DNA of 61,223 nucleotides, taken from assembly GCA_001724265.1 (NCBI GenBank), contig MEDY01000153.1, positions 1 through 61,223 of the forward strand, written 5' to 3'. Below, in pieces: positions 2,921 to 50,087 of this stretch. A program made the position numbers and the translations under genes. This DNA is from Rhizaria sp. SCN 62-66. Its lineage: Eukaryota. Position 1 is the first letter of the stretch. Each line of letters begins with the position of its first letter. Below the pieces are notes generated by a model that was given only the letters and a program-made list of their open reading frames with translations, ran no database searches and had not been told where the DNA came from.

Positions 2921-5900
2921 ATGTCTGCCACAGGCCCTGGACCCAGCGCTCTCATTGGCGCAGCTGGCCTCGGAGATCCAGCCTTGCCCTCCGGCGCGCC
3001 TGCGCCTGACCATCACCATATGACGCATGTACCAGTGTTATTTAACTCCTCTCCTGCGCACGGAGACCCCGCGGGCCTGCAGTCTTCCTCACACGCAGCC
3101 TCCGACGTGTCACCCGTTGCGCTCTCCCAAGCCCCCACAGCCGCCGTCGCCGCCGCCGCATCACAACTTGCGCCCGCCGCTGCCGCCGCTGCCCCGCTTA
3201 CCGACCTGCCCCTTGCCGACGCTTCCGTTGACAGCAGCACAACAGACGACGCCTCCGAGGCGTTCCTGGAGGAGGAAAGCCGCGACTATTTCGACGCAAC
3301 CCACGAGTTCAAGCTCCTTCCTGCCGCCACCGTCGCCGCCACCAGCTCCCGTCGCGCGCGCCCTTCCCGCCGCACCGCGTCGTCCGGCGCAGCCCCCGTC
3401 ATCGAGACCGAGCCCCAGCCCACCGGGACGCCTTCGACTGCGTCCTCGGCGGTGGCCTCGGCGGCGTACCGCGGGATCTTCGACGAGGTCGACGACGGGT
3501 CGCGCCCCCCGGGCCACGACATCGTGCCCTTCCTCACGCTTGCGGAGCTGCGATCCTTCTTTCTCGACGGCGGCGTCGCGCTGCTCGACGATTCTTTCAC
3601 GCCCGAAGGCGACCCGTGCCCGCACGCGCGCTGGGACGGCGCCGTAGCCGTGGCGGCCGCCGAGGCCGACGAGGCCGCGCAGCTCGCCATCCTGCGCCAG
3701 TCCCCCAACGCCGTCGCGCGGGACCTAGCGGCCGCCGTCTCACCCTCCGCGCCGGCCTTTGCGGGCGCCGCGGCGGGGGACGACGGGTGGCGCGCGCGCG
3801 TGGCGACGGGGCGGCCGCCGGAGTCGTTCGCGTCTCTCGACGAGGTCAAGCGCTTCCGAAAGGCCGCTGTGGGATCGATCAAAGAGGCGGCGCATCTGCT
3901 CGATGTGTTTGACCACTACGCGGCGTACCACCACGCCACCAAGGGCATGCTTAAGCGGCAGGAGGCGCAGATCGACCGACTGGAGTGGAAAGCGCGCGCT
4001 GTGCTGGGAGATATGAGGAGAAAGTTCCTCCAGAGGGAGATGTGCACCGACGAAAACCAACAGTTTCTCACAGAGCTCCTCCGCACTCAGGTACGATTAA
4101 TAACACAATCACTGAATACCGTAGCTTTTTTATCAAACCCAAGTTTCCCTAATTTTGTGTATTTTAACTCACCAGTGACTTCTTGCGTCTTGGCTCGTCG
4201 TTTTTGGATCCAGGCCCTGGGCGACCCGCGCGTCGACTTCACCCGCGTGCGCGACCTCTGCCCGACGAACCGCCACCTGCCGAACCCCGACAAGGTGCGC
4301 GCCGCGCTCAAGCAGTGTGCGCGCGACTGGAGCGTCGAGGGCGAGAAAGAGCGCGCATCGTGCTACGGCCCCATTCTCGAGGTACGCAACTTGAACAAGC
4401 TCCTAACCCGGTCGCCAGCAACGGATCACTTGAATATACCAGTTTGTTTGTACTCTACTGTTACGCTTGTTGCAACCATTTTTTTCAGTGTTTATGAGAA
4501 GTATGATAGCACACAAAATATTTCTAACCTAGTTCTATCATTTTTGTTGTCTGAATCTCACGCGATACGCAGACACTGACGCGTTTGTTTCCTGACGAGG
4601 ACGCTCGTGGGGACCTCGCAGTCTTGGTCCCTGGCACAGGCCTCTCTCGCCTGCACTATGACATCGCCCGCATGGGCTTCCAGTCCCACGGCGTCGAGTT
4701 CTCCTACTACATGCTGCTCCCGGCATACTACCTGCTTAATTGCGTTGAACGCAAGGAGCAGTGGAACATCTATCCCTGGGTCCACGCCTCCAGCAACGTC
4801 CGCGCCTCTGTCGACCGCGTCACTCCCATCAAAGTACGTCTCGTTTTTCCCAAACCACATCGTCGCGCGAAGTGTCATTTCATTATTTAGATAGACATGT
4901 TGCATTCTACACTGTTTCAACTCATTTTCCTTCTCCCGTATTTTGTTTCTGCTGTTGCAGATCCCCGACCTGGTGTGCGGGTCGGTTCCGCTGGCGCCCA
5001 AAGCCGGCGAAGGCTTCCGCATGATGGCGGGTGACTTCCTCGACGTCATGGGTCCCCACACGGCCGACACGTACGACGCCGTAGTGACGTGCTTTTTCAT
5101 CGACACGGCACACAACGTGCTCGACTATCTGCGCCGCATCTCGCTCGTGCTCAAGCCTGGCGGCAAGTGGATCAACCTCGGACCCCTGCTCTACCACTTC
5201 GCGGACCTGGTACGCGCTTAAATATGATATTTGTACTGTATACTTAATGCGCCGCTGTTGAATTTGGTACCGTCCACAATGTTTATTACCGCTCTTCCTC
5301 AACGACGCAGGTTCACTCACTTTAAGCCATCTTTTCTAACATCGTCGCTTCACCATGAACTTCCCCGTTTTTCTCTATTCCATGTATGTCTACCCTCTCT
5401 AGCCTGGTGAGGAATCGATTGAGCTGGCCTGGGACGAAATTCGCGCCGCAATGGTGTCTTTCGGCCTGTCGCTGGACACCGAGTCGTTCGACAACATTGC
5501 CAACTACGCCGTCGCGCCCCACGCCCTCATGGCCACAACTTATAAGTACGTTTCACGAAACACGCATATATACGGCGCAAACGCACTCCCATTGAAAGAT
5601 TGACTCTGATGAAACTAGGAGCGTTTCTTTACACATGTGCGCTCTTGATTTTATAGCGTCAACGCGATGTATCCCTCTTCGTATGCCCTATTTCACATCC
5701 ATTCTTGCTCACCATCACCGCTTTCTACATGCACTTCTGTCCGCAGCTGCGTCTTCTCCGTGGCGACCAAGACTTCGGACACGACCGACACGGACGGCTG
5801 GGACCCGACCGTGTTGACCGCCATCCTAACCGCGGGCGCCATTGCCGACGCGCAGCAGCAGCAGCAGCAGCAGCAGTTGCTGGAGCAGCAGCAGCTTGAT

Positions 5901-5979
5901 CAGGGCCATGACCATCAGAAGCACGCCCGCAGGCAGATGCGCAAACAACAAAAGCTCCTGTAGCAGCAGCAGCAGCAGC

Positions 5980-6020
<41 letters not shown>

Positions 6021-6275
6021 AGTCAGCCACAAGCCCCAGAGGATTCCGCCTTGCTGCAACAGCAGCTCCAGCAGTTGCAGCAGCTGCAGTTTCTGCACAA
6101 GCAGCTTCCGCAGCAGCAACATCAGCAGCAACAGCAGCGCAACCCTGCTCACAGCCACTCTCACGGCCACGGTCACGGCCACGGTCACGGTCACAGCCAT
6201 GGACTAAGCGGCAGCCCTTGCGGCGGCCACGACGACGGCAACGGCGACGGCAGCGAGTATAGCCACGCGCAGTAA
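2921..6275 (+). CDS. CARNMT1: Carnosine N-methyltransferase (N2227 family); exons 2921-4090, 4214-4381, 4573-4833, 4961-5209, 5403-5545, 5747-6275; 839 aa if TAG 5961 and 5985 are sense; stop TAA
   Basis: Motifs KVRAALKQCARDWSVEG, VLVPGTGLSRL (SAM binding), EFSYYML, AGDF, VVTCFFIDTAHNVLDY, LKPGGKWINLGPLLYHF, ESIELAWDEI. All five introns are GT-AG and keep frame. Under the standard code the CDS would end at 5963. Confidence 0.88.
5853..6137 (+). repeat. CAG/CAA trinucleotide (poly-Gln) tracts in the last CARNMT1 exon, containing two in-phase TAG triplets
   Basis: (CAG)n runs are directly visible; TAG at 5961-5963 and 5985-5987 are in register with the CAG units. Confidence 0.9.
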
Positions 6276-8450
6276 GTAACGGGTGGCATCCACTGTTCTC
6301 TGATGTCATACCTGTGCACAACACTTATCTTATGACTGTACTGTTGACTGGCCAGTGTTGAATCTTAGCCACTATCGCTTTCATCGACACAACTCTCTCT
6401 ACTCGTAGGATTAACTGCGTGTAGTAAGTTTAATAATTATGGTCACAATTACTATATGAATCGCGCGTCAAGTCGACATTTGTGCGCTGTTTTTTGCAGA
6501 CTACACGCACGGCTAGCACAAACGCCATATCAAACACCCACTCATTCACTCATTCTTTCACCCACCACATCGAAACGCAAACCTTTGACCTCTAAACTAA
6601 CGGACCACTGCTGTAAGTCGCTCCGAGCCTGGCAGACACGAACGCGGACTCTGTGATACTGATTTCTTCACTATGTCCGTGCGCGCGCGTGCCTGCTCTC
6701 TGCACTTTCATGTGCAACAAACATGACTCTTACGCATGTTGACGTATTTGCGTCGGGTTAATTTCTTTTATATACCGATCCTAGTTTTTATGTGTTTTTT
6801 TTTCGTTTTTGTTTTAGTGGGTGCATTTAGTTCTTTTTTCAACTCTAAATGTCGCATTCAATCTGAACAAGTTTACCACACCGTTTTTATCCGGCCTTTC
6901 TCTGATATATTGTTTTGACTCTATTTTGTTCTGTCATCTGCCTGACTTTTTGTTTGATTTTGTTCTATTATACGTATGTCTTTTAGATTTGTACATCTCA
7001 TTGCTCTGTTCCTGCGTGAGTCTGCCTTGATCTGTGTCAAACTGTATAGTCTCTTGTAACTTCATAATAACAATTGTAATTGCTACGGCAAAAACGCCGC
7101 ACGAACGCGGCATTTTTTTTTCTCTCATTCCACACCATTCCATGACAATTTACCATCTCTTTTTTATTTTGTTTGAACGTTAAGCTGATTTTACTTATTC
7201 TAGTCAAAGCACTACGATTCTAAAGCCAGTCTCAGTCCCTGTGTCCGTCGTAGCTCCGAGTTTCTGTTGCCTGTTTGCCTGTTTGTCACAGCCACGGTGG
7301 TTCTTACCTCGCGTTTGCTGCGGTCGATTGCCGCTCACTCCGATGTCCTCACTCTTGCTGCCTTCAAGCCTGCTTCAGCCACTCTTGTGCTACTCACAGT
7401 CACTCGCCATTGCTCTCAGTCCCTTGCACTGCGCACTGACGCGATCGCAGCATGTCGCCGTGACATGCTGCCTTGCTTTGCGCACCCGCGTCTCCTCGGT
7501 TGTACAATGTTGCCACCACTCTGACACCTTCGACATTTTGCATATTTATTGCACTTTGCTTTCAAGTGCACACGGCATCGCGACTCTACACTGCGTGTAT
7601 ATTGTTGTGTTTAGGTCTGCTCCTTTGTTGCGCACCAACACTGGCGCCACCCAGCGGCTATCTTTACTGCCGTTTTTGTCGATAGTCTACATACTATTAT
7701 TACTGTTCCCTATTTTTTGTGTATTTCTGATTTGTTTTACCTCTACTCTGTGTTTATTTTTCTTGAAACCCCTTCAACACTCCCCTGACCCGCTTTCATT
7801 ATTTGAATCTGTTCTCCCTCTCATCACACTCCTGTTTCTGTTTGGACTTGCGATACATGTCGATACCTCGCTTTTTTGGCTCATTTTTTGTGTACGCACG
7901 ATACTGCTGCGCTGCTCAATATCCATTCAATTCGCACTCTTTGTTCGTTTAATGGAGTCACAATGAGTTTAGCACTGCGTGCCCTTTCACACATCACCGT
8001 ATGTTGTTTCTGTTCCCTGCGTCGACCGCAACACCAAGCACTATTTTGTGTTGCTTCAACCCTTATTTGTATGTGTCTATTTTCATTTCTTTTGCCTTGT
8101 ATTTTTCATCGCTTCTGTGACCCTTTCGCACTTGTAGCTCCCATTGCTAGTACCTGTTCGTTGGGCTTCTTCTGCGAGTAGCCCTCTCATAACGAATCGT
8201 ACGCATAACCCGTCGGCCCGACCGTTGTCAGCTGTTACGGTACTTTACATATAACACGTTGGCCCGGTCGGCGTCCGTTCGTTACACCAGCAATCAGAGA
8301 CTTTTTTCCTCGTGTACATACTGGATCTTACATGTTCCTCTTCAGTGTCTGTTTTGTTCATGCGTCTTTTTTTGTTTTTTCTTGCCTGTCCTCATGTTGC
8401 TCCTGCATTCCTGCGGGCATTAAATGTGACCCCGCAGCTCGAGAGACCCG

Positions 8451-8829: not shown

Positions 8830-11800
8830 TTAGAATGCAGACCCAGCCGCCCCTCCACGCGTGTTGACCTCTGCAACAAACTGCTCGTAGTCAGTCTCCA
8901 ACTTGTGTCCGCCAAAGCAGCCGCGGGGCCCGGCACAGCGGCAGGTGCCGCCGTACTGCGCGGGCAGCTGGTCGGGCGCGATGATCTCGAGCAGCGTCTT
9001 GGCGGCGTCGGCGCCGTTGCAAATCATTGTCTTCTTGATGGTGCGCTCGTGCAGCAGCGGCTTGACAACCTTCCAGATCATGTTGAACCACGACGGTACG
9101 TTGATGACGACGATCTTGGCGCTGCGCACGGGGTAGTGCGCTTGCAGAAGCTTCGACACGGACTTGACAAAGCTCATGGCGGAGCCGCCAATCATGTCGC
9201 GCATGCCGATGCCCTCCAGGTCGAGCACGGTGACGCACACGGCCTCGAGCCGGTTGTCCAGCACCGACCACTGGTACTCGCAGTTGTGCAGATAATGCAT
9301 CTGCAGGGCCTCGTCGCTCACGCCCGCGGCCTTGATGGTCTTGATGTTGAGCTTTCCGGGCCGCTCAATGTACACAAAGTGGCCGTCGCGCGAGTGCCCG
9401 TGGAACACGTGCCCGCACAGCTCGCGCACGCGGCTAAACTTCGGGTACGGCGTCGCGAGCAGCGAGTTGATGCCGTGCTCGGCGCGCCAGCGCTTGGTTT
9501 CGACCCAGCGCACTTTGGCCTTGGCCACGTCGCCCATCTCGGCCGCCACGTAGCGGCTCGGCATGTCAAAGCACAGCCGGTCCAGCACGGCGGGCGGCAG
9601 CGCCGTCGCGGCGGGCGGGAAAGGCCGGTCCTCGTTGCGCCACGTGAGGTTGAACTGCGGGTGGAACACGGTGCGAAGAGCCTGTACGTAACAAGTTAAG
9701 AAACAAACGCGAATATGAAAAAAACGGATTGGCATAAGAGGAATAGAACAAAGAAAAACAAGAAATTATGTAAAAGATCGAAGATCGTATGTAGTTGCAG
9801 TTTAATTGCTACCCACGTCGTTGTCCGTACCTCGTCTGGGTTGAGGTTCACCGGCTTGTTGCCACAGTGCTCATGGTCAAACAGCACCCAGTGGCGCGTG
9901 GGGTCGCCGCCGAGGAAGCCGCCAATGCCCTCGCCGGCGCCCGCAGTCGCGACTCTGGCGCCGCCCGCCGCGGCCGTCGCGTCTGCCGTGACGCCGGCGC
10001 TGCTGTCGGCGGGCGTGGCGTACGACTCAGAGAACGGGTTGGTGTCGATGAACGCGTCATCCGTCGTCGCCGTCTCCGCGCCCGCGCCGCCCGCAGCCGC
10101 AGCGGCCGCAGCAGCAGCAGCCGCCGCAGCAGCGCGACGCCGGCCGCCCCCGGTCCCGCGCCTGCCAGCGCCCGCGCCGCCGCTGCCGGCGCCGCTGCTC
10201 TGCGTAAGTGCAAGCTCTCTCAGCACGAAGGCCCTGATACGAGCGCGCTCCTCGCGGACTTGCGCGCGCGCGCGCTCGCGGGCCCAGGTGGTAGCGCCCA
10301 CGGCCGCGGCGGCGACGGCCGCGCCTGCGCCGACTACGTGCCACAGCGACACGGGCGCGGCCTCGGTGTAAGCCTGCGCGAGCGAGAGCAGCACGCGCGC
10401 GATGAGCGCCAGGCAGCTCAGCGCGCCCACCAGCCGCCACGCGCGCCGCGCCGCGCCGGCGCCGGAGCCTGCGGAGGCGGACGAGGACGAGGCGTCGCCG
10501 TCAAGGGTGTCTGCGGAGTCGCCCGCGGCGGCCGCGGCGGCGAGCGCAGAGTCAACGCTCTCCATCGCGCTCTTGGTCAGGCTGCCACTGCTGCTCGCAC
10601 CGCTGCTGCTCGCACCGCTGCTGCTGCTGTTGTTGATGGTGCTGTTGTTTGCGCCACTCACGCTGGCGTTGGCGTGGCTGGGGCTGTTGTTCTTGTTTGC
10701 TGGGACTTGACCTGGGGCGATGTAGGTACCTTCGGCGCCCCCCTTAGACCCAGCACCCTTAGACCCCGCGCCCGCGTTGACACTGCCGCGGTGGCCATTG
10801 ATGTGCCCCTGCGCCGCACCGGCGCCCGCAGTCGTAGACGCCACCGCGGCCGCGGAACCACTGGCGGAGAGCGAGAGCGAGAGCGAGAGCGCGGGCGCAG
10901 TCAGCGGCGCCGCGCCTGCGGCCCCGCTGTCGCCCGAGGAGGCCGATGGCGTGAAGGGCGGCGACGTGGCGGACACGCGCCGCAGCGGCGACATCGGCGT
11001 CGTCGGCCGCCGTGCGCCGCCGCCGTTGCCGCCGCTGAGGCTGCCGCGCGGGCCCCCCGCCGCTGGCGTCCCGGGGGCAGCAGCGCCGGCCGCGGCGCCG
11101 CCGGCGGTGGCAGTGCCGCTGGCAGCGGCCGAGGAGGAGGAGGAGGAAGAGGACTGGTGGCTGTGCGCGCGCATGCGCAGCTCGCCGAGGCTCAGTGTGC
11201 TGCCGTCACTGGACGAGAGACTACTCCTGGCGCCGCCCCCGCTGCCGTAGCCGTGGCCGTGGCCGCTGTGATCGGCGTCGGCAGCTGCGTGGACGCTGGC
11301 GGCCTCGCTGTGGCCGCGGCTGTCGCCGTCGCCGTCCTCGTCCTCGTCCTCGTCCTCGTCTTCGTCGTCGTAGCGCATCTCAGCGTCCTCCCAGTCGCTG
11401 TCGTCCTCGTCATCATAGCCGTCTCCGTGTCCGTGCCCGTGGCCGTGGCCGGTGGGGTGGGCGCCGCCCTTGTGACTGCGGGCCTCGGCGCGCGCGGCCG
11501 CCTCGGCCGCCACAGCGGCGGCCGTCGCAGCGGCCGTCGCAACGGCTGCGGCGGCGGCGGCTTGGTTGTGCGCATGCACTTGCGTATGCGACTGTAATTG
11601 AAGTTTACCGGGCGTCGCAGCAGCAGCACCAACAGCGGAAGTAGCAGTCGCAGTTGAAGTAGTGGCGGCAGCAGCAGCCGCAGCAGCAGCCGCAGCAGCA
11701 GCAGCCGGCGCAACACCGGCGGCCCCGCCGTTCGCTGCATTGCTGCCGCTGGTGGCGGCGGCGAGCGCGGCCTCCGCAGCCACGGCGGGCGGTGGCGCCA

Positions 11801-13472
11801 CAGCCGGGTAGATGACGAAGGTGAGGTCGAGGCCCTTGCCGTCGCACACCACAAAACCGCCCGCCTGGCTCGAGTCCTCGCAGAACGCGCCCCCGCCGCC
11901 CCCGCCTACACTGGCGCTGGCGCCGGCGCCACTGTCGGAGACGGAGGAGGACGACGGCTGCAGCGCGCGGCCGCCGAGCTGCGGCGTCGCCTCGCTCTGC
12001 GCGAAAGACTGTGAGTGCGAATGAGACAGTAGGTGCGCGGGCAGCGCGCCGCCGGCCGGCGCGGCGGGCGTGGCGGGCGCCGAGGCCGTGACCGCGATGC
12101 TCACAGAGTTGGATCTGCTCGAGCCCACGGCATGCCCGTGAGAGTCCAGCAGGGCGATTGCCCCGCCGACCATGACGCCGCCGCCGGGGCCGCCCGGGGC
12201 GCCGACAGCAGTACTCACGCCGACAGCGGAGCCCGCTGCGCTCTTGCCGTCCTTGCCGTCGCCCGCCTTGGCGTCTTTGCCACCGCTCTTGGTGTCCTTG
12301 TCCTTGCCCTTCTTGGAGCCGCTCGAGGCGACGAGCGAGCTGGCGAAGGACATGAGCTTGCTCTTCTTGGGCTTGAACGCCGTGAGCCGCTTACTGTAGC
12401 GCGACATGGACCGGTTGGCGGTGTCGATGTCCACGAAAACGGGGTCGCCCACGCGCACCGGCGCCAGCGGCGGCTTGTCGGCCGACGCGAACGACACGTG
12501 GAGCTCGCCGCGCGTGTGCCGCGGGCGCGGGCCGATGTAGCCGGTGAGCCAGCCAGTCTTGTTGTTCCACACCGCGCCCGACTGGTCAACGAGCACGACG
12601 GTCATGCCGTACAGCACGGGCTCGCGCAGGCGGTGGCGCAGCACGTCCTAGTTCACCGCCGCGTTCGTCGACAGCACCGTGAACACGTGCGGCACAAACC
12701 GCGCCGCGCTACCAGCAACGCCGGACTGCGGCGCCGCACCGCCCGCACCGCTCGCAGAGCCGAGGCCCGCGGCCGCGGGGCCGTGGCTCGAGGCCGAGGC
12801 CGCGGAGGCGGCGATGGACGACGTCGACGTCGAGTGCATTAGCCCGTCGCCCGCGCCCGCCGTCCCCGCCGCAGCCGCCGCGGACGACGGGTCGGCAGGG
12901 ATGTAGAGCGAGCGCACGTGGGGCGGGATCGAGGTCACGATGCCGTGGCCTTTGTACGGCGCGGTGACGTAGCCGACGAAGCCGCCCGCGGAGCAGGGCG
13001 CGTAGGGCGACACCGTGAAGAGCTTGATCTGATCGCCCAAGTACAGGCGTGAGCCCCACGCGCCCGCCTGGTTCGCGCCGAACGTCGTGGGGCCGCTCGC
13101 CACGGGCGCGGAGGCCGGGGCCGCGCTCGGAGCAAAGGCAGCGCTGCTCGCGGCTCTACTAGCGTTCGTAGCAGAGGTGCCAATGTTGCTGTGATTGTTA
13201 CTGCTGTTGTTGTTGTTGAGGACGGGGGAGGTGGGCGGCGACAGAGCCGGTGCGGGTCCGGGGGTGTATGGCGTCGCGGGGTACGCGGCAGCAGACGAGG
13301 CGGAGGCAGAGCCCGCAGGCGTGGCATGGCCGTGCGTGTTGGCGTTGGCGTACAAGCTGAGGTTGGGGTATGAAGGAGACTTCACCGGGGTCGTCGGGTA
13401 GTGCTGCGGGCCTGAGACGCCGTTACTGGCGGCTAAGCCCGGCGCCGCCGAGTAGCCGGGAAGGTGGGACAT
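8830..13472 (-). CDS. Large CRAL-TRIO/Sec14 lipid-binding protein with an N-terminal globular domain and two predicted TM helices; exons 13472-9831, 9681-8830; 1497 aa with in-frame TAG at 12648-12650; stop TAA
   Basis: C-terminal Sec14 motifs (WRAEHGI, FHGHSRDGHFVYIERPG, VLDLEG, HYPVRSAKIVVINVPSWFNMIWKVVKPLL, IAPDQLPAQYGG). ORFs 12648..13658 and 9696..12644 are in the same frame and separated only by TAG-GAC. GTACGG..ACAG intron at 9830-9682. Confidence 0.8.
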
Positions 13473-14417
13473 CGCGCGCGGGGCGAGCAGGGAGCCGCGG
13501 GAGGCGCCGGTGGGGCGGGGCCGGGTGCGCGGGGGGAAGCGAGGCGAGAAAGCGCGAACGAGGTGGTTGGGTGCGAGTCGACGCTGAAAGTAAAGACAGT
13601 ATCGAGGTGTGATAAGATATGAGTACGTGAATATGATAGAGTGTGAATAAACACACATGGGAAATGTGGTGGTGAATCGCCAGCCACGTGTTGATGTAGG
13701 CAGTGACGCGCTTGAAATGTGGCCGCGGCAACAATGCTAACGGCGCGCGACCACCCTTTTCGCGACACGATCGTCTTAGTACATTTAAGAGTTGTTAAGC
13801 CATCGTTATGGTATCTTATGGAAGCCATTTGCAATATACGTATACTGCAACGAAAAGTTGCAGCAACGTCGCGAATACTCGACTGTATCGTGTTTACCAA
13901 CCACCTCTCCGCCTTGGACTGGTACGTTGTCCCGATGCTGCCTAACGCCGAAGGAAGCCGAACAACACCATTTTTGCATACAGAAATCTCAAACAATACA
14001 GTACGACTAAAAGAAACAACATATACTGTACAGTGAAGTGTGTGAATGATTAAAAACATATATTTATTAGAATAAAGTATAAAGCTCGCGTGCCTATTCT
14101 CACACAGCTGCATGCGTAACACAGCAGTGAGACTCCTGAGGCACGCCGGTAGCCATGAATATACGTCATAAAAAACGCTTGTAAGTAACACGGGAGGGCC
14201 AATCTTTTCTCAGATCATATCATAAACAACATCTCCAACAAAAGAAATACCAACAACAACAACAACCACAGCAGCATCGGGAGTAACAGCAGTAGCAGAA
14301 GATGAAAGGAACGCACAACACTGCGAGTCAAGACTTAACTCAACAACACACAGTGTTCACGCCGACACATCTCTCTTTCAGAGCTCATGCCGTTCTCGCC
14401 GTCATCAGCCGGCTACT

Positions 14418-17616: not shown

Positions 17617-19392
17617 ATGTCGTCCTTGGCTCCCCGTCTGCGAGCCTTGCTGCCTCTGCAGGCGCTCGCGCCCGCGCCCAGCGTCGTCGCCTCGCTGCTT
17701 CCGCGTCACGCTGGCCCGTCTCCACCCTCATCGATCACGCCGCCTTACGGATACGCCCAGCTGATGGCCTCCGAATCGTCTTCCGCGCGCCCCCGCCCAT
17801 CGGCAGCCGCCGCCGCTAAGGTCGCCTGCCCGCGTCTCCCCAGCAACAATATCTCCCGCTCTGTCTTCGCAGCGTCAAGCCTGAGCCGCCCCGCGCGCGG
17901 CCTGCGTGCGCCCCAGTCGGCGCCGCACCGGCCTTTCTACTTGTCCGCGGGCGGCAGCGGCGGCGGCGGCGCGGGGAGCCCCAGTCCGCCGTCGTGGGCG
18001 CCCCGCGCGCTGGCGCCTCTCGACACGCCCTACACGGCGACGCCGCGCAGCGTGCTCGTGATCAAGAAGTGGGGCTCCCGCAGCGCGACGCGGTACGCCA
18101 ACGACGTGGCGGCGCTGCTGACGGAGCGCGGCGTGCAGGTGTTCATCGAGCCCACCACGGTGCTCGACTATGACGAACACACGCAGTACCCCACCATCCT
18201 CGACCTCATCGCGCGCGCCGACCCAGCTGCCGAGAGCGTGTTCACGCACAACTTCGCGCCCGTTATCACAGACTCGTTCACGTTCGGGCACAAGGCGCTT
18301 GCGAGCAACGGCGGCGGCGGCGCCAGCGCGGGCTTCTACAGCCCAAGCTCAGACTCGGTCTCCACGTCGACCGCAGAGAGCTCCGCTGCATCAAACGCCA
18401 ACTCGAGCCCTGGCTCTGGCCTCAACCCCGCTGCCGCCGCAGAGCCGAGTCGCGAGATCCCGGACTCGGACATCTCGTGCTCGTCGTCCTGGGCGGGCTT
18501 CGCGCGCGCCCCGGCCCCCGCCGCGGCACTATCGGCGCTGGACCCGCGCGAGTGCATCGCCTACGCGCGCAAGCTCGACTCGTGGCAGCGCCATATCGAC
18601 CTGGTCGTCTCCATCGGCGGCGATGGCACGCTGCTGCACGTTTCCACGCTCTTCCCGCACACCGTGCCGCCCACGCTGGCCTTCGGCTGCGGGTCCTTTG
18701 GCTTCCTCATGCCGTTCAACCCCGACTTCGCCGGGCTCGCCATCGACGCGCTGCTCGCGGGCCGACTCCGCGTGTACAACCGCTCCCGCCTCGCCTTCAA
18801 GGTCGGTGGCGTGGCGGGCTACGACGCGCGCGGCTCGCCCTGGGTGCCGCCCTTCTCGGCCACGGACCCGCATTGTTACCACCTGCTCAACGAAGTCGTG
18901 CTCAAGCACTCGTACGGCCTTAACGTCGGTGCCGGCGTGAGCGAGATCGAGTGCCGCATTGACGGAGACGTGCTGGCGCGCTTTCAGGGCGACGGGCTCA
19001 TGATTGCCTCCCCGACGGGCTCCACGGCCTATAGTATGGCGGCGGGGGGCAGCATCGTGCACCCCGCGCTGCAGTCGATCCTGATCACGCCCATCTGCCC
19101 GATGACGCTGTCCTCGCGCCCGCTGGTGCTGCCAGGGCAGAGCACGGTGACGCTGACGCCCATACACGATGCCGTGTTGCTCGAGGGTAAGTTCGGCCGC
19201 GTGATTCAGCCGCTCGAGGTGGTGACGGTGCGCCAGAGCGAGTACCCCGTGCCCGTGTTCGCGCGCATGTCCGTCACCACCGACTTCGTCACGGACCTGG
19301 GCTCACGGATGAACTACGCGCGCATGGTGCGCGTGCGCCGCGACGAGCCCTCGCTGCTGCCGCATCTCGCCAACGCCACCGCCACTGCTACA

Positions 19393-19442
<50 letters not shown>

Positions 19443-20253
19443 TAGCAGCAGCAGCAGCAGCAGCAGCATTGATGGCAGCAGCAGTAGCAGCAGCAGTATG
19501 GTGTCAGACACGGTCACAGCGAGTGCAAGTGTGTGCGCCAGCGCGCCCGGCGCGAGCGCGAGCGCCAACGGCGCGGTGCCTGCGTGGCAGCTGTCGGGCG
19601 TGTCGCTGTCGCCGTCGTCGGCACACCTGCACGCGCGCGAGGCGGCGCAGCACGCGCAGCACCAGCAGCACACGGCCCTGTTCGGCGGCCAGCTCGTGGG
19701 GCCCGCGGCGGGCGGCGGCGGCGGCGCGCACGGCCGCGACGGCGCCGGCAGCGGCAGCAGCGGCAGCAGCGCGGGCGCGGACGTGAGCGCCGGCAGCGCG
19801 CCCGGGGTTGTGTTCGTGCCGTCTAGCCACGGCAACACGTTCGACGGCCACGCCAACGCTTCCAACGCCACGGTGACCGCTGGCCCCACTGACGGCGCCG
19901 GTCGGAGTAGTGATGCTGCTGCGAAGCACAAGGTGGGCGAGGCAACGGCCAAGGGCTCGAATGGCCCTGCTGGTGCGGCTGCTGATAGCAACGCTGCCGG
20001 TGATAATGCAACGCAGGATGGGTTTGACCCTGTCGCTGCGGCCGTCAACAACGCCGCACAGCTGCAATAGCAAGCGCAGGCGAAGCAGGCTCAGCGGCAG
20101 CAGAAACAGCAACAGCAGAAGCAACAACAACAGCAACAGCAGCAGCCGCAGCAACAGGCCTTCGGTCCGATCGGCTCGTTCATGTCGAAGCGCGAGCAGG
20201 AGGAGGTGACCAAGGACCGGGACATCGACGGCATGGGGCGCGCTCGCAAGTGA
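17617..20253 (+). CDS. NADK: ATP-NAD(H) kinase, possibly mitochondrial; single exon; 878 aa if TAG 20068 is sense; stop TGA
   Basis: VSIGGDGTLL, LLNEVVL, GDGLMIASPTGSTAYSMAAGGSIVHP, ITPICP..LSSRPLVLP. The Arg/Ser/Ala-rich, acid-poor N-terminus resembles a presequence. The standard code would stop at 20070. Confidence 0.9.
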
Positions 20254-20941: not shown

Positions 20942-23900
20942 TTAGAAACGCTCGCGCGCGGCTGTGGCGACGTCGTTGGCGGTACGGCGGTTGGCCGTCA
21001 GCGCGCTGTATGCGTCGCGCACGCCGCGGAAGAAGCCGGGCTTAACGCGCGCCTCAGTGCTCTTGTCGTTGGGGTCCTTGACGAGGATGAGCTCGGTGGC
21101 CGTCATCGTGGGCAGCTCGGCAGAAGAGATGGACACGATGGCGCCGACCCAGCGTGAGGACGCCGTGTCGAGCTTGGCGGTGAGCCCGCCGAAGGTGTAG
21201 ATGTGCTCGCCCTTGGGGCCGCGCTCGAGCACGGGCGCGGGGAAGCGCGCGACCTCGGGGCGCGACGCGGTGGTCTGGCCGGCGACCTCGATGCCGACAA
21301 CGGCGTCAGTGAGCTTGACCACGCCCTCGGGGTCGGTCAGTGCGACGGAGCACGACAGCGTGTCGCCCTTGGTGTACTCAGACACGCCGCCACAGTTGAT
21401 CGACACGTAGGGCTGGTTGATCTGGAGCGCGATCTCGTCGAAGAACATCGCGCCGTCGGCCTCGCCCTCGACGGCGTCGACGGACATGCGGATGCGGAAG
21501 TTGTTGGTCCACTTGAACGCGGCCTGCACAGGAGAAGACACCCACAGCGCGCGGTCCCACTCCATCACCATGGGCTTGCCCGTGGGCGTGCCCGAAGCGT
21601 CGGTGCGGAACGTGCCCATGACGGTGCGCAGACGCGACGTGGGGTCGTCCTCGGCGTTGCGCGTCGACACGGCCTCGGCGGTGATGGTCCAGCGGTACAC
21701 GACGGCCGAGGAGCCGGAGTACTTGATCTCGAAGCGGAGGTTGTCACCGAAGCGCGCGGGGCCGATGTCGTCCTTGTTGGCGCGCACGGGCAGCACGGAC
21801 GACTTAAGCGGAAGGGCGGGGGCGTACACCTCAGTGTCGACCTCGGTCTCGGCCTCGAACTCGACGGACGCGTTGGTGAAGGCGCCCATCTCAAGGAAGG
21901 TGCCGACGCGGGAGTAGGAGCGCGCAGCGTTGGCGTTGCACACCGAGGTGTAGCCGCGCTGGCCGAGCGTCTCGGACGTGCAGAGCGAGTCGGGCATCTT
22001 GGTGATCATGTACCGGCCAACGGTCTCGGTGTCGGTCTTGGTCACGACGTAGTTGTTGCTGTTGTACTTGCGCACACGGGTCACCTTGGCGCAGTTGGAG
22101 GCGGCCGAGAGGAAGGCCGCGTCGTACTTGGAGTTGAAGTCGAGGCGCTGGAGCGCGTCGAGCGAGGCGGGGCCGTTAAAGTAGTCGTGGCGCGTGAAGG
22201 GCAGCTCGTTGGGGCCTTCGTAGGACTTCTCCTGGGGCGTCGCGTCGACGGCCTGCCAGCCGTTGCCGTTGGCGATGTCGGTGCGGCGGAACCACACATC
22301 GGCCCAGACGTGGAAGTTCCAGATGGACGCGTCGTCCTTGGCCTTCTCCCACGTGTACTCGCCCGACGCGGACTGGGTGAAGTGCGTATAGCACTTGTTG
22401 TCCTTGGACACGCCAGTGCGGTGGATGTACTTGTGCGCCGAGTCCATGTTGGTGACGGAGCGCGTGGGGTAGCCGATGGAGCGCGCCATGGACACGAGGA
22501 TGGCGGAGAAAACCCAGCACTGGCCGTACTTGACGGGGCTCTGCGACGTGACGAAGCGCGCGAAGATGGGCAGCGACGACGTCCACGTCCAGGGCGCGTT
22601 GCCGTCGGCGTAGTTATTGTCCCAGCGGCCCGCGAGGACGCGGTAGCCGGCCGTGGTGAGAAAGCGCGACACGCGCACAGGGTCGGCGCGCTGGGCGATG
22701 GTGAAGCGGAGCAGGAAGCCCATGGTGATGTCAATGACGGTCATGTCATACTGGTTGAACGCCCAGGGGATCCAGGTCGGCGGCGCGCGCGAGGAGCCCT
22801 GGTAGATGGCGCCGAACTCGCTGAAGAGGTGCTCGTTGAGGTCGACGTTGAGCTCGGAGTTGGAGCCGTACTTAACGCGGTCCGCGGCCGAGACGTAGGA
22901 CACGCAGTCCGAGTGCATGGGGTTGAAGACGAAGTAGAAGAGGTCCTTGGCGCGGTACACGAGCTTGGTGCCGACGACAGCCTCGAGGTAGTAGCGGCCA
23001 ATGGCGCGCTTGTTGGCGAGGATGATGCGGCCGCGGTCGACCTTGAGCAGCGTGGCGTCGATGGCCTGGCCGATCTGGTCGACGAAGCGCAGCTTGGAGC
23101 CCGCGGGGAGGGAGTTGCGCGGGATCTGCACCGCGAAGGCGGCGTGGAGACGCAGCACGATGGCGTTAGCGGGGCGCGCGCCGGACGTGGTGCGGTACTT
23201 AGTGGTCGAGTGCACCTTGAGGTTGGTCTCGTAAAAGGTGCTGTAGGTGTCCAGGTTGGTCATCGGCAGCGAAGAGAGCTCCGCGGGGATCACGGTCGAG
23301 CCGGCCTCCATCGCGGCCTCGGAGACCACGGCGGCGGCGGCAGCCAGGGTCGCGGCGGCCTCGGCGCTAACCTCGGTCTCAGCCTCAAGCTCGGCCTCGA
23401 CAAAGGCCTCGGACTCAGCCTCAGCCTCAGCCTCAGCCTCGACCTCAGCCTCGACCTCAGTCTCGGCTTCAGCCTCAACCTCAGCGTCAACCTCGGCCTC
23501 AGCTTCAGTCTCAGCCTCAACCTCAGCCTCGGCCTCGGCATCAACCTCGGCATCAGCCTCGGCGTCGACCTCGGCCTCAGCGTCGGCCTCAACGAGCGAG
23601 GTGTACTGGGGCTCAATCACAATCTCCGACTCGGACTCGGTCTCAGCCTCCGCATCAGCCTCGGCCTCGAGCTCGTTCTCAGTCTCAGACTCAGCCTCGA
23701 GCTCGAGCTCGGACTCGTTCTCGGCCTCGGCGTCCATCTCAGCCTCGGCGTCGAGCTCGGCCTCGGCGTCGGCATCCATCTCGGCGTTGAGCTCGAGGAG
23801 GGCGAGCGTGTTGGCGTCAGCCTCAACCTCAAGGTCGGCCGCGAGGTCGAGAGCGTTGAAAAGCCCGCTCTCGGCCTCCACGGTCGTGGAGTGGGCCATG

Positions 23901-42981: not shown

Positions 42982-43650
42982 ATGTGCTCGTTTACCTGCT
43001 GCGGCACGTGCTGCGGAAGTACGTCTCTTAACCATTCCGTTGGTTTCTCTTATTGCACTTCATCCCTCTGTCTATGCCTTGAACTACTTAGTCTTCTCCT
43101 CGCCACCACCTCGTCATGCTTCGCTCTTTCGTCCCTCGCTCCCGTCCCCTGACCGCTCCTTGCTATTCCCTTTGCCTGCCTCCACACTGCTCTCCATACT
43201 CCCCCACGCAGGTTTCTCCATGTTCGGACTCATCTTCCTGGTACGTTCCTCGCGTAACCCTCCGCTCCCGCCCCTCCCTGTTCCCAAACTGCGACAAACT
43301 CCGCATCTGTGAACCGCCCTCCACGCCCATCCTGTCATTCACAACCAATCCCTCTCACTCTCACGCTCACTCATTCTTCTGTATCACTATCCTCTCCTTC
43401 TGCTACCACTCCTCGCGCTCTTGTTTCCGTCCAGCTTTGCATCGGTGGCATCATCGACAGCGGCTCCCACTCGATCAACATCGCCGAGTCGTCCCGTGCC
43501 GACGCCGCCAACAACGCCTACGTCGGCGCCGCCATCTACGCCGCCTTTGTCGGCGCCTCGATTATCATGTACTTCTTCGGCCGCTGGCGCTCCCGCACCC
43601 TCGCTGCCGCCAACGCCTCCGCGCAGCCCCTGCTCGAGAACCGCTACTAA
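42982..43650 (+). CDS. RNASEK: RNase kappa / V-ATPase subunit f-like small two-TM protein; exons 42982-43018, 43212-43240, 43435-43650; 93 aa; stop TAA
   Basis: Spliced product MCSFTCCGTCCGSFSMFGLIFLLCIGGII..AANNAYVGAAIYAAFVGASIIMYFF fits the CC..S.FG.I.L / AA.Y pattern of the family. Two GTACGT..CAG introns keep frame. Confidence 0.72.
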
Positions 43651-44502
43651 GTCCCCCCGCCCTTTCCAGCATGTTATTCCTAGTTTAGCTTAATATGGTG
43701 TTTGTGTGAGTGGTAGTGGTCACTGGGGGACGCAGCGCGCATGCGCACTTGCATGTCGCGCGGACCCTTGCTCTGTTCGCTTTTTTCCCTTCTCAGGCTC
43801 TCTCCCCTACGTGCTCTGGCGTTTTAACTCACACCCAGTCGAGTCGTATCTCCAAGCGTGGCCGCTTGCTCGCATTTATCGTTCTCGTGTCCTCACTGTA
43901 GCCAATCGCGACAGTTATGCTCTCACAAGCATGCTCGAACGTCGGGCTCTGTTGTGCGTCGTCGGGCCACTCGCAGGCAGCGCTTGGGACTCGCGCGAGC
44001 TGTAGTTGAACACAACAGAGGCGGTATGCTCTTGCTACCGTGAGTGAATCTGCTAGATACGTTCGTCATGAGAGAGTTTTGTGGTGAATTTTGCCGTGAA
44101 CAGAGGCGCTGACGACGCTTACCCGTCAATTTCGATAGTATTTCTCTTCAGTTTCGTTTCGTTTCTTTATTCTTTCTTTATTCTTTCTTTTTTACACATT
44201 TATTTTGTTTTCTTTTGATTGATGTTCGTTTGTATCTGACGTGTGCAGTCACGTAACGAACATCAACGCCCAACGTTACAAATATACTCCAATAAAAACA
44301 AAAATATCTCAATTTAAAAACCCGCAAAATCTGTATTAAAACATAAAGAATACATTGTGAATCTCAAAACTACCAAACAACTACCATAAACACGACAATC
44401 AATAACCATAGAAAGTTATCATCATATCTTAAGTGAGCTTCTCTCAGCTTAACTAAACACCAGCCAGACAGTCCAGCAACACAGAAAGAGCAGCCTCTGC
44501 GC

Positions 44503-47500
44503 TTAGATGACGCGCTGACGGATCTCCTCGATGCGGCGCACCACGTCCCTGGGCTCCGAAGCCAGCTCCTCGGCCACGCTCTGTAGCTGTCCCACCGTCA
44601 GCAGCCCGACGCCCTGGCCGACACTCCCGCCCGCGCCGGCGCCGGGCGCCGCGGCCGTGGCGAGCGCACCCGCGGCCGAGTGCCCGCGGTAGGCCTCGGC
44701 GTAGGCCTCGCAGAGGTCGCCGTCGACGACGTTGGCCACGGGCGCATAGTAGGACCGGTACGAGAGGTGCTCGCGGCCCACCAGCGAGGGCACTTCGTTG
44801 CGCAGATGCAGCTCGAGATGCGTGAGGAACTCGCCGTCCTCGCGGAACGCCACGGGCGCCAGCACACCGACGGCGCCGAGCATCGTGGCGTAGACGAGCA
44901 CCTTCTCGCCGCCCGGGGACAGCGCTGTGTGTTCAATGCCCGTCACGATGTCGCCCGTGAAGGTCGACGCCACGTCTGTCATCAGCACGGGCGGGCGCCG
45001 CACCGTCGCCGTCGCGGCGTCGATAGACGAGTGCGCCGCGCGCAGGCCGCCGCCCGTGGGATCGGTGTCGATCGCGTCGGCGTCCTCGGCCGCGAGGCGC
45101 GTCAGCGTGAGGTTGCCGAAGCGGTCGCCGCTGGCTAGGGTGACGGGGTCTACGCAGCACGCCGCCGACAGCACGCGCGGCGTGGGGGACACGGCCACCA
45201 CGGCGAAGCGGCGCTGGTACGAGGCTGAGGGCGTCGCCGCGGCGCCTAGGCCCGAGGGTGCGACGGCGTTGACGGCGGCGACGAGCGTGACCGAGTACTG
45301 GCACACGTAGAAGCCGGTCGTGGCGTCGCCCACGGTCACCTTGACGCCGTTGGCGGCCAGCGGGTCAGTCCCCACGCCCATCGCCGTCGCAGCGCCCGCG
45401 CCAGAGCCGGCGGCGGAGCCGGAGCCCGCGGCACCGCCGGCGGAACCCGCGGCGCCGGCGCCCGCGATGGCGCTGGTAGGGGCGCCGCTAGCGGCCGCGG
45501 CCGCGGCGACGGACTTAGGGATCGTGTCGTCGTTGAGGTGGATGCTGGTGAGCATCGAGGCGTTGGCGACCTTAAGCTCGCTCTTGAGCAGCAGCTTGCG
45601 CTTGCCCAGCTCGTACACGCGCAGGGCGTTGCCGACGCCGGCCAGCAGCAGGCCCTCGGCCGTGAAGCCCGCGACCGCGCCCGGCACGTCTGTCACGGGC
45701 GTGCGGTGCAGGAAGGTAAGCCGCGGGGCCGGGGCGCCCGCCGCCGAGTCGGCAGCGTCCGTCGCGGCGGCAGCGGCCGCGGGGCCGGGGGAGACGGCGT
45801 AGACGAGCAGCGCACCTCCGGCGTGCGAGCGCTTGGGCAGCTGGATGAGGTCCTTGACGACGCCGACGACGAGGTACAGCCCCACGGCGTTCTCGTCGCC
45901 CGCGGCCACGGCGGCCGGGGTCGCGCCCGCGGAGACGAGGGTGCAGAAGGCGGCCGAGAGCGCGACCTCGTTGTTGGTCATCTCGATCGTCTGGACCGTG
46001 CTCAGGTCGATGGGGTCCACGACGCGGATGCACGACGCCCACTTGCCTGTGAATGTCGTCGCAAGATTGCCAAGACAGCAATAAAGGCGTGGTGAGATAA
46101 TATTCGGATATAGAAAAGTAGATGTCAATATATAAATGAGTAATTAAATATAATCGTGTCGTATTCGTATGTTCATTCGCTCAGATGTTATGTTTCACAG
46201 TCCGTACCTGACTGCGCCTGTGGAACACCGCACTGGAGCTCAAGAGCCCGGTACTCGGCCTCCATCTGCTCCGCGTCCGCAGCCGCCTCTGCAGCCGCAG
46301 CCTCGGCCTCGTCGTACTCCTGCCCCGTGGCGGCGGCCAGCTCGCGCGCTTCCTGCCGCGCGGCCTCGCGCGCCTCGGCCTTGGCGGCCTTAGACGTCTC
46401 CGCGAGCGCCTCGCGCGCCGCGGCCGTCATCTCCTCCTTAACGTCCCAGGGCAGCGCGTTATCGTCGCCCTCGACGGTGACGAGCAGCGCCGCCGCGGGT
46501 GCGCGGCCCGCCGCGACGAGCGCGCGGTGGCGGCGCGGCTCAAACGCGAGCAGCTTGCGCGGCGTGTAGCGCAGCGGCGTCGACACGCGCGCGAACGCGT
46601 CGCCCAGCGCGTCCGCGGTCAGGATCAGCATCGACGCGCCGCTGGTGGCCACCAGGCCCTGCGGAAAGGACTCCGAGACGAAGGGCGCGATGGTGGTGAT
46701 CGGGGACGACACGGGTGCGGCGCCCGTGGCGCGCGAGGCGGCGATGGCGGCGTCGCTGAAGGGGATAAAGAGGGGCGCCTCGTGGACGGCGCCGGCGTAG
46801 GTGTAAAAAGCCCAGGGCCGCGAGCTCAGCGCGATGACGGCCACACCGCTGCCGAGCGTGACCGTGGCCAAACGAACAGGCGCCGCGCCCAGCACGCGGC
46901 GGCGCGGGTCCGAGAGCTGGCCCGAAGCGGCGTCGAGCGAGGAGCGCACCAAGAGCCCGTTCTCGAGCCCGATGTAGAGCGTCAGCGCGGCCGACGCCGA
47001 CGCCGACACGGCGCCCGCGGCCGTGCTGGGTGGCGTGACCGTGAGCGCGCAGGGGACGTCGGGCAGGCCCTGCAGCGTGAGCTGCTGCAGCAGCGAGTCC
47101 GGCGACAGCGACAGCACGCGCACCGTGCGGTCGTGCCCGCCCACAGCGACGAAGGGCGCGCGCTGGCGGCCCGGCGCCACGGGCGCGAGCGCGAGCGCGG
47201 CCGCCGTGTTGCCCATGGGCTTCTGGAGGATGTCGCGCATGTTGCCGTGCTCTGCCTCCAGGTACACCAGGTCGCCGCCGTCGAGCGACAGCACCAGCTG
47301 CGAGTCGTTAGCGGCGCAGCGCACGATAGGGCGCCCGCGCGGGGCGTTCCAGTTGGACACTTTGCCAGTGGCGACCGAGACGAGGCGCACGCACTGGGGC
47401 GTCACCTGCAGCCAGCCGCCCGTCGCCGACGCCGCGGCCGCGGGGCCCGCCTCGTTGAAGGACGTCAGCAGCAGCGTGGGCGACTCGGTCAGCAGCCCCG

Positions 47501-49121: not shown

Positions 49122-50087
49122 GGCGGGGGCTGGTGGTGCGCGGCGGCGACGGCAGCGACGGCGGCGGCGGCGGCGGTGGCGGTGGTGTGTTTAGGTGTTG
49201 GAATCGAAAGAGCTGTCAGCAAACTATAGCTCAGTTTTTTAACGGGGCAAAACTCGATCAATGGGCTACAGAAGAAGCAAAGGTGTCCGAACAAAAGCGT
49301 TTGAGTGAGCCGAGAAGATTGTAGATGCAGAAACATACCAGATAGTGAAGAAGTCAAGGATGAGTTGACTGTGAAGCGCGGAGATTGGACAACGAAATAG
49401 CATAACAGTCTAATCGCCAACAAGAGATCTAGCAGCCGCCTAAGATTATACAAAGGCTGGTCTGTTTTATCGCAAAATTAGAATTTAAACAAAAGCTGCT
49501 GGAAGCAAGAACCAGCTCAAGAAAGTCTTTACACGAAAGCTTGACCAACAGTGTCGGTTCGTGAAAAATAAAAAGCACCACCGCCCACGGTCATCGTTAG
49601 GACGGCAAGCGGTGAGCGAATGACGCAATGTTCGGGCATTCATGAATTGTGGCATATCTATCGATAAAATAGCACCGCTGTTTAATATGCGCTACGACGT
49701 GGGTGTGATTCATAATATGACAATTTTGTGTCCCTTGAGAAGGCGTTTTAGCCTGTCGGATGTCTCTAGAGCCGATCATGGCAAACGTAGTCGTTCGCGC
49801 GAACAGACGCGAGCCACGCATCCCCCTGCTCGCGCCGCCCACAAAGCCACAGACCCACCTCCCACGATGTCCGCGCGCACGAAACGACCTCAGTGTCCCC
49901 CTTGATTCTCTCTTTTTCTCTTTGTTCCCGCTTTATCTCACGCATCTATCCCCTCCTTTGTCTCCCCCCTCTCCTGGCCCTCCTTCCGCGCACTCTGCCT
50001 AATCTCCATCGCACGCCAACGATCTCGCTCAAAACCCGATCTTTTTTACTTTTCCTTACTTTCACCGCTTCTGGGTCTGCAGTCGCG

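Follow-up and report, generated by a model that had tools for sequence, protein, structure and literature searches.

To our knowledge, codes in which UAG alone is reassigned while UAA still acts as a stop codon were unknown before 2017; a handful of lineages with such a code are known now, and most of them are AT-rich ciliates. Condylostoma, Parduczia and Blastocrithidia have ambiguous codes, in which the same codon is sense inside genes and a stop at their ends. In the nuclear code of Iotanema spirale (Fornicata), UAG encodes glutamine, and UAA and UGA are stops; 126 genes contain 204 in-frame UAGs and none at a terminal position, UAA outnumbers UGA at gene ends (104 versus 15), and 22 of 28 hyperconserved UAG sites correspond to glutamine (PMC5304391). 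UAG is likewise glutamine, and UAA a stop, in Protocruzia tuzeti and in two lineages of phyllopharyngean ciliates (PMC11687900). UAG is read as leucine in the rhizarian exLh (PMC5304391; PMC11687900) and in metagenome-assembled genomes (MAGs) of TARA phyllopharyngeans (PMC11687900), and as serine in Scotinosphaera (PMC11687900). In NCBI table 6, used by many ciliates, Hexamita, Ulvophyceae, Streblomastix and Amoeboaphelidium, both UAA and UAG (UAR) specify glutamine (PMC11687900). Here, we present an analysis of a contig of 61,223 nucleotides deposited as Rhizaria sp. SCN 62-66 (MEDY01000153.1; the whole stretch is referred to as the window), in which a gene for a CARNMT1-like protein carries two TAG codons in the polyglutamine-coding part of its last exon. 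TAG is present in frame inside the coding sequence of three genes of the window, and there are no TAG terminators. We consider it highly probable that this organism uses TAG as a sense codon. If TAG is sense, CARNMT1 necessarily runs to the TAA at 6273, and it is there that the gene very probably ends. The joint reading, in which TAG is sense, CARNMT1 is translated through both TAGs to the TAA at 6273 to 6275, and the residue inserted is most likely glutamine, is likely as a whole.

CARNMT1 is encoded on the plus strand. Exon 1 (2921 to 4090) has an open frame from the ATG at 2921, encodes a long low-complexity N-terminal region, ends with CAG|GTACG at 4090/4091 and, taken alone, has no Pfam match. 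The following exons match the Pfam CARME profile (PF07942): exon 2 (4214 to 4381), the splice sites of which are seen in the sequence, matches profile positions 11 to 42 (E 6.5e-07); exon 3 (4573 to 4833, match 4573 to 4836, donor GTACGT at 4834) positions 45 to 132 (E 6.7e-26); exon 4 (4961 to 5209) positions 143 to 210 (E 6.9e-29); and exon 5 (5403 to 5545, donor GTACG at 5546) positions 213 to 257, with a match that is weak alone (E 0.095) and colinear with the others. A PDB sequence search with exon 5 gave no matches. Exons 2 to 5 thus cover the profile in order, and two of the CARNMT1 exons score 91.6 and 101.4 bits versus a CARME cut-off of 27 bits, which places the protein in this family. 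With TAG as sense, the last exon extends from 5747 to 6275 (acceptor ...tccgcag|c at 5746/5747) and encodes the end of CARME, a Q-rich and His-Gly-rich tail and the terminal TAA. Its reading frame is fixed upstream, both by the colinearity of exons 2 to 5 with CARME and by the frame score, which from 5748 to 5960 is 0.36 in the CARNMT1 frame versus −0.07 to −1.14 in the other five frames. All five CARNMT1 introns start with GTACG (4091, 4382, 4834, 5210 and 5546); this type of 5' splice-site consensus is unusual and might aid the identification of the lineage. In run X5, which is labelled as a poly-A metatranscriptome, a contig corresponding to 4215 to 4615 crosses the intron from 4382 to 4572 without a gap; this contig is unspliced and, therefore, represents genomic DNA or pre-mRNA and is uninformative on splicing, 3' ends and expression.

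In the frame of the last exon, the first TAG is located at 5961 to 5963 and the second at 5985 to 5987, i.e., 24 bases or 8 codons further downstream, in the local sequence ...aag ctc ctg TAG (cag)5 caa cag TAG (cag)10 caa ggg... Tandem Repeats Finder (TRF) describes a CAG-type run that holds both TAGs and two CAA codons (5962 to 6016, period 3, 18.3 copies, 92% matches). An earlier, sequence-only reading of this locus had claimed that the two TAGs lie in register inside a polyglutamine tract of CARNMT1 and that the frame continues for 104 codons to a TAA at which the GC content falls. The sequence and the frame of the last exon confirm the first claim, and our measurements confirm the second. 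The 104 codons from the TAG at 5961 to the TAA at 6273 to 6275 are first poly-Q, then Q/L-rich and finally His-Gly-rich, with a CAC-GGY (His-Gly) repeat at 6147 to 6199 (TRF, period 6/12/18). Measured over the 120 bases on each side, the GC content falls from 0.69 to 0.46 at the TAA at 6273, the proposed true stop, from which the next in-frame stop is 19 codons away; around the TAGs at 5961 and 5985, it is 0.60/0.62 and 0.58/0.60, respectively, and, thus, does not drop. Translation through both TAGs would extend the protein past the methyltransferase domain by a C-terminal tail of ~165 residues comprising the poly-Q and His-Gly-rich sequences, and the TAG-bearing part lies outside the CARME domain. 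In runs X3-X6, the contigs are interrupted at the CAG repeat and skip 5843 to 6023, giving no confirmation of the T at 5961 and 5985; no variant row is listed for the two positions in other runs, which is not proof of the T bases.

The composition of the CARNMT1 tail is unlike that of the non-coding DNA in the window. Using a coding-versus-non-coding score per codon calibrated on 271 coding and 226 non-coding windows, we found that the tail scores 0.22, compared with a maximum of −0.305 for non-coding windows and a mean of 1.03 and minimum of 0.18 for coding windows. The GC content of the tail is 0.64, every period of its repeats is a multiple of 3, and HGHG stretches recur in undisputed coding sequence, e.g., the minus-strand open reading frame (ORF) from 9696 to 13775. 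Moreover, the next in-frame stop is 95 codons after the TAG at 5985 versus 3 to 46 codons after the 11 uncontested stops in the window. Several observations weigh against translation of the tail. The frame score is 0.05 in frame versus 0.18 in the +1 frame and 0.23 in antisense, and this 0.05 is below the 5th percentile (0.18) of the 271 true in-frame windows. Because all three forward frames are nearly open, with 0 to 1 stops each, the openness of the tail is weak evidence. GC-rich, repeat-bearing and open sequence past a true stop does occur here, as the 3' untranslated region (UTR) behind the TAA of ABCF2 (52522 to 52640) opens with a (GCT)n/14-mer repeat, has a GC content of 0.60 and remains open in frame for 46 codons. 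These observations are as expected if the standard code applied, in which case the TAG at 5961 would be the real stop of CARNMT1, either original or resulting from a recent CAG>TAG change, and 5964 to 6275 would be a 3' UTR of decaying CAG and CAC-GGC repeats. The same explanation would have the NAD kinase gene and a gene for a beta-trefoil/CRAL_TRIO protein recently truncated by their TAGs. The antisense frame score of 0.23, which exceeds that of the sense frame, would also fit a constraint from the opposite strand, such that the CTG, CTA and TTG variants reflect a poly-Leu coding region in an antisense frame that is open save for the two TAGs. However, the product would be a stretch of 21 leucines together with VAVTV repeats, i.e., the mirror of the CAG repeat, and would be without start context; it would overlap a verified CARNMT1 exon in which antisense scores −0.07 versus 0.36 for sense, and nothing else indicates a gene. 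We regard this explanation as scarcely credible. Altogether, the CARNMT1 tail alone does not prove translation, codon statistics fail to single out its frame, and the case for a sense TAG rests on other genes.

The gene for the beta-trefoil/CRAL_TRIO protein is located on the minus strand from 8830 to 13472, with a stop TAA at 8830 to 8832, an intron near 9700 to 9770 and a Pfam CRAL_TRIO match. It contains an in-frame TAG at 12648 to 12650 (TAG 12650) in the conserved beta-trefoil domain. The flanks of TAG 12650 are GC-rich and uninterrupted, with nothing intron-like nearby; the frame score is 0.48 upstream and 0.68 downstream, and the best other frames score 0.30 and 0.06, respectively. Past the TAG, the frame is open for 983 codons towards CRAL_TRIO, and the off-frame stop density in the GC-rich DNA of the window is 18 per 1000 codons. 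An exhaustive search of 1.84 billion representatives identified 63 homologues of the domain around TAG 12650, and a search limited to proteins of similar lengths found none; the database copy P0122 (274 amino acids) is the ORF of the window ending exactly at TAG 12650. Using phmmer locally, we aligned 27 different homologues through the TAG column. The Albugo homologue aligns in a single frame across the TAG, with FTVL... before it and V.YG..VVLV..G.VWNNKTG.(I/L)TGYIGPRPR after it. Based on tblastn, 6 of 6 homologues match first the N-terminal domain (12351 to 12698) and then CRAL_TRIO (8923 to 9573), with strand and order agreeing and the two matches ~3 kb apart, and CRAL_TRIO is present in 6 of 8 scanned homologues. 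In an AlphaFold model based on a 34-row alignment (mean predicted local distance difference test [pLDDT] 71.9), the segments on either side of the TAG are predicted to form one domain, with the TAG residue, 136, in a helix and block pLDDT values of 96 (residues 121 to 130), 84 (131 to 140) and 91 (141 to 150). The best Foldseek matches, which are weak (E 1.5e-3), are the N-terminal beta-trefoils of ryanodine receptors. TAG 12650 is covered with no differences by contigs of two other studies (X3, 11817 to 14353; X4, 12092 to 12746). Under the standard code, this one truncation would cost two-thirds of the conserved domain together with CRAL_TRIO, yet the 983 codons past it are open. The beta-trefoil N-terminal domain is without a Pfam family; the consensus of 34 sequences contains three YGD-type repeats. 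In the window, the two domains are spaced by ~800 residues of low-complexity sequence, and all named homologues that share this architecture are from oomycetes (Saprolegnia, Pythium and Albugo).

The NAD kinase gene (17617 to 20253, plus strand; Pfam NAD_kinase and NAD_kinase_C) contains an in-frame TAG at 20068 to 20070 (TAG 20068) in its Q-rich tail, in the context AAQLQ-TAG-QAQAKQ...; if TAG is sense, the gene ends at the TGA at 20251 to 20253. The 60 codons from TAG 20068 to this TGA have a frame score of 0.21 in frame versus −0.33 or lower elsewhere, and the non-repetitive stretch AFGPIGSFMSKREQEEVTKDRDIDGMGRARK past the TAG has a coding-versus-non-coding score of 0.86. The GC content changes from 0.66 to 0.41 at the TGA at 20251 and not at the TAG, and past the TGA there are stops in all frames. 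No listed contig piece covers TAG 20068; the bin is covered by reads and is listed with no variant row, but this does not prove the base. A bias that is restricted to the coding frame and persists up to the TGA is at odds with a gene truncated at TAG 20068, as is the fall of the GC content at TAA and TGA codons rather than at the TAGs.

The 11 uncontested gene ends in the window consist of seven TAA and four TGA, and none is a TAG. The TAA ends of SF3B3 and ABCF2 coincide with the C-termini of the corresponding proteins of a relative (P0003 and P0192, respectively). A GC-driven scan for in-frame TAGs was unspecific (45 hits, mostly antisense), and, therefore, a frame-specific score was used instead. 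Scanning the window with the frame score, we found no in-frame TAA in a coding context. The one TGA flanked by coding-like sequence lies antisense to a minus-strand gene and is, hence, not a genuine in-frame TGA. Similarly, an apparent in-frame TAG in ABCF2 at 51048 was rejected because it is an intron acceptor (..cgcTAG|GTC), with an exon junction that fits the length of the relative's protein; the ABCF2 intron at 50899 has GTATGC at its 5' end and TAG at its 3' end. TAA is the commonest stop (7 of 11) despite ~90% G+C at third positions. Simple GC pressure would not predict this predominance, which fits the idea that TAG is unavailable as a stop.

Not all of the window-wide evidence points in this direction. 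The absence of TAG from 11 gene ends has a probability of ~0.04-0.09, by our arithmetic, if the normal share of TAG is 20-25%. Only 4 TAGs occur in ~13,300 codons, 3 of the 4 are at most 104 codons away from a gene end, and TAG-carrying genes make up 3 of ~17; both the rarity of TAG and its bias towards gene ends are also expected from truncating CAG>TAG changes in dispensable tails. Because the G+C content at third positions (GC3) is near 0.9, most single-base nonsense changes give TAG, and the fact that the in-frame codon is always TAG is no evidence in itself. We detected no tRNA genes within the window using ARAGORN and Rfam, and no gene for the release factor eRF1 is among the Pfam-annotated genes of the window. 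The standard code could accommodate the position of three of the four TAGs in dispensable-looking, low-complexity tails near gene ends, with TAG being the nonsense codon that a CAG-rich genome would be expected to produce. It would, however, need three independent truncations in ~17 genes of a strain that is unchanged across several studies: the DNA of other runs matches the window almost base for base, and the few differences all lie away from the TAGs. It also leaves the absence of TAG from the 11 other gene ends to chance, and we consider this explanation improbable.

The very low usage of TAG and its skew towards gene ends would also fit an ambiguous or leaky TAG that acts mostly as a stop with partial read-through, either by a near-cognate tRNA-Gln(CUG) or depending on context or position as in Condylostoma and Blastocrithidia, such that short and extended products are made; ambiguous codes are, indeed, known in other eukaryotes. 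However, an ambiguous TAG should be found at gene ends, of which it occupies 0 of 11, and TAG 12650 is located ~1,200 codons from the end of its gene in a folded domain, such that the protein would be crippled if read-through were inefficient. A leaky TAG is, thus, very improbable. Returning to TAG as a sense codon, the proposal of the sequence-only reading that CARNMT1 is translated to the TAA at 6273 draws its support from TAG 12650, TAG 20068 and the lack of TAG among the 11 gene ends, and its original basis, the CARNMT1 tail, is ambiguous.

Which amino acid TAG encodes is suggested by the context of the codons. At least four glutamines lie within six residues on either side of 3 of the 4 TAGs; this context surrounds 19.5% of Q, 2.1% of L, 2.0% of H, 1.4% of K, 0.3% of E and 0 of 235 Y residues, and Q is found on both sides of 2 of the 4 TAGs. 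Because three of the four TAGs lie in a Q-rich context, glutamine is the likeliest meaning. In a naive context model, in which the pair of TAGs in CARNMT1 counts as one locus for a total of two loci, glutamine is favored ~70-fold over the next-best residues, leucine and histidine. This model overstates the case for glutamine, because new TAGs stem mostly from the abundant CAG whatever TAG means (CAG occurs 385 times and CAA 26 times among 13,017 codons in the window). Glutamine is the commonest known outcome of UAG reassignment (PMC11687900; PMC5304391). With this prior, and given that TAG is sense, we suggest with good confidence that it encodes glutamine, with leucine as the main alternative.

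Conservation adds little to this assignment, and part of the evidence runs counter to it. The only alignable TAG, TAG 12650, is located in a variable loop, and there is no conserved glutamine column: in the phmmer alignment, the column contains G in seven rows, N in three, D in two, gaps in six, one each of E, Q, K, P, A, V, S, C, R and I, and Y in a further nine rows, all of which are from one repeat protein. The TAGs at 5961, 5985 and 20068 are in non-conserved Q-rich tails, and such tails tolerate replacements, weakening the argument from a glutamine context. Moreover, leucine breaks Q runs in the same CARNMT1 exon (QQQQQQQQLLEQQQL and LQQLQQLQFL).

It is unlikely, but not negligibly so, that TAG is sense and encodes another residue, the likeliest being leucine, in which case CARNMT1 would still end at the TAA at 6273 and its Q tract would contain two non-glutamine residues. 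Every argument for read-through holds equally for this alternative; in addition to the leucines in the Q runs, Leu-Leu directly precedes the first TAG, TAG is one base from the leucine codon TTG, the TAG column of the beta-trefoil domain is uninformative, and UAG as leucine with UAA as a stop has been documented (PMC5304391; PMC11687900). Nevertheless, at each locus a Q-rich context is seen ~9 times more often around Q than around L (19.5% versus 2.1%), two of the four TAGs are directly flanked by Q on both sides, and glutamine is the commoner known outcome. The sequence-only reading had favored glutamine for a different reason, namely that TAG seems interchangeable with CAG and CAA in the repeat, as a synonymous codon would be. 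Its choice of residue gains from the ~70-fold preference of the Q-rich context, and its argument from the pattern of variants proved weak. CAG>TAG and CAG>CAA are two of the three possible transitions, and, therefore, the same variants would arise in a repeat under no constraint; the absence of the third transition product, CGG, from the repeat has a probability of ~0.2 for four variants by our arithmetic. In addition, CTG, CTA and TTG on the opposite strand all encode leucine, making the variants equally synonymous there.

If TAG encodes glutamine, UAG would be decoded by a tRNA-Gln with the anticodon CUA, which is one mutation away from tRNA-Gln(CUG), and eRF1 would no longer accept UAG. TAG would re-enter genes mainly by C>T transitions in the very abundant CAG codons, and this route implies that TAGs appear first in poly-Q tracts. 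We tentatively propose that the window represents an independent and young reassignment of UAG to glutamine in a GC-rich and unsampled lineage, in which TAG has disappeared as a terminator and is re-entering genes through CAG>TAG changes in poly-Q tracts. Under this proposal, and no more firmly than the proposal itself, TAG would make up ~1% of the glutamine codons, and TAA, rather than TGA, would serve as the main stop despite a GC3 of ~0.9.

The window is eukaryotic, with exons of ~0.7 GC and a GC3 of ~0.9 and with AT-richer introns and spacers. Near-unchanged copies of its DNA are present in bioreactor, wastewater and activated-sludge metagenome runs of several studies, which argues that the source is an uncultured organism. 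Genes named by Pfam are CARNMT1 (CARME), NAD kinase, BRF1, Sec23, ABCF2 and SF3B3, together with those for a DEAD/GUCT helicase, a transglutaminase-like protein, EIPR1, a Seh1-like WD40 protein and the CRAL_TRIO protein. The SF3B3 exon has one relative with 61% identity (P0003, metagenome-only), and named eukaryotes reach at most 42% identity among the 120 matches listed; ABCF2 is 86% identical to P0192, which is encoded on the contig of the P0003 relative, and the next matches reach at most 73%. Because these identities are low, the lineage has no close kin among the named eukaryotes in the databases. In a cluster look-up with 20 beta-trefoil/CRAL_TRIO and SF3B3 clusters, all four of the named clusters were from oomycetes (Saprolegnia, Pythium and Albugo). 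These oomycete proteins are a weak hint of affinity, and SF3B3 shows no such affinity. Scans of metagenome, genome and viral contigs, of which those of metagenome contigs used SF3B3 of the window and P0003 as queries, gave no confirmed loci with further DNA of this organism or of the P0003 relative.

SF3B3 and ABCF2 are adjacent in the window (44503 to 52521). The relative's SF3B3 (P0003, 61%) and ABCF2 (P0192, 86%) share one contig of 26,409 bases, and the two members of a more distant pair, P0004 (41%) and P0248 (69%), each come from a contig of 8,893 bases. This suggests that the neighborhood is conserved. The relative's SF3B3 and ABCF2 are single uninterrupted ORF calls, and the copies in the window have introns. 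Two low-GC spacers, 7001 to 8000 and 43001 to 44000, are strongly asymmetric between strands, with a GC skew of −0.23 and −0.30 and an AT skew of −0.34 and −0.32, respectively, i.e., their plus strand is rich in C and T; neither contains an ORF with a coding signal or an Rfam match. On the minus strand (23356 to 23795), the transglutaminase-like protein opens with a signal-peptide-like N-terminus and continues with an extended acidic repeat of Glu-Ala and Asp-Ala units (EAEAEA...; TRF periods 6-42).

If UAG was independently reassigned to glutamine here, the decoupling of UAG from UAA would not be tied to ciliate biology or to AT pressure; if the reassignment is also young, as tentatively proposed above, this would be the first such code beyond ciliates and metamonads, offering a snapshot of early codon capture in a GC-rich genome; the very low usage of TAG would show an early stage of a code change. 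A practical consequence is that gene callers using the standard code would truncate the proteins of this organism, as exemplified by P0122, which ends at a TAG; CARNMT1 would lose 104 codons and NAD kinase 61. Among the titles and abstract openings listed in searches of an open-access library, none deals with a reassigned UAG in a stramenopile or in a GC-rich eukaryote from wastewater.

Several of the known codes share features with that of the window. Like table 6, the code proposed here would reassign a stop codon to glutamine; table 6 is, however, inapplicable because TAA is the main terminator (7 of 11 gene ends, two of them confirmed by the relative's C-termini). As in the ambiguous codes, a standard stop codon would be read as sense within genes; unlike in those codes, TAG occupies none of the 11 gene ends. 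The codes of exLh and the TARA phyllopharyngean MAGs resemble our proposal in that UAG alone is reassigned, UAA is kept as a stop and a tRNA(CUA) is the proposed decoder; they differ in that the residue is leucine, whereas the context here favors glutamine. Protocruzia and the phyllopharyngeans with UAG as glutamine would have the same code variant, which was likewise recognized from genomic data alone and partly from metagenome assemblies. In contrast to those ciliates, which have 27-54% GC and up to 91.1% of genes with at least one UAG (PMC11687900), exon GC is ~0.7 and 3 of ~17 genes carry TAG here, and gene structure is conventional.

The code of Iotanema provides a further comparison. In both cases, UAG occurs in frame, with continued homology or coding signal at 12650 and 20068 and an ambiguous tail in CARNMT1 here; UAG is unused as a terminator, here in a small sample (0 of 11); UAA and UGA are kept as stops, and here neither was found as a genuine in-frame codon; UAA exceeds UGA (104 to 15 there, 7 to 4 here); and UAG is decoupled from UAA. 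Unlike in Iotanema, the window has 4 TAGs in ~17 genes, no conserved column contains any of them, and the genes are GC-rich and interrupted by spliceosomal introns; because there is no close similarity to named eukaryotes, nothing ties the organism to fornicates. Altogether, a code with UAG as glutamine and UAA and UGA as stops is of an already known kind, and the present case differs from those documented in its very low TAG usage, its GC-rich genes and the organism.

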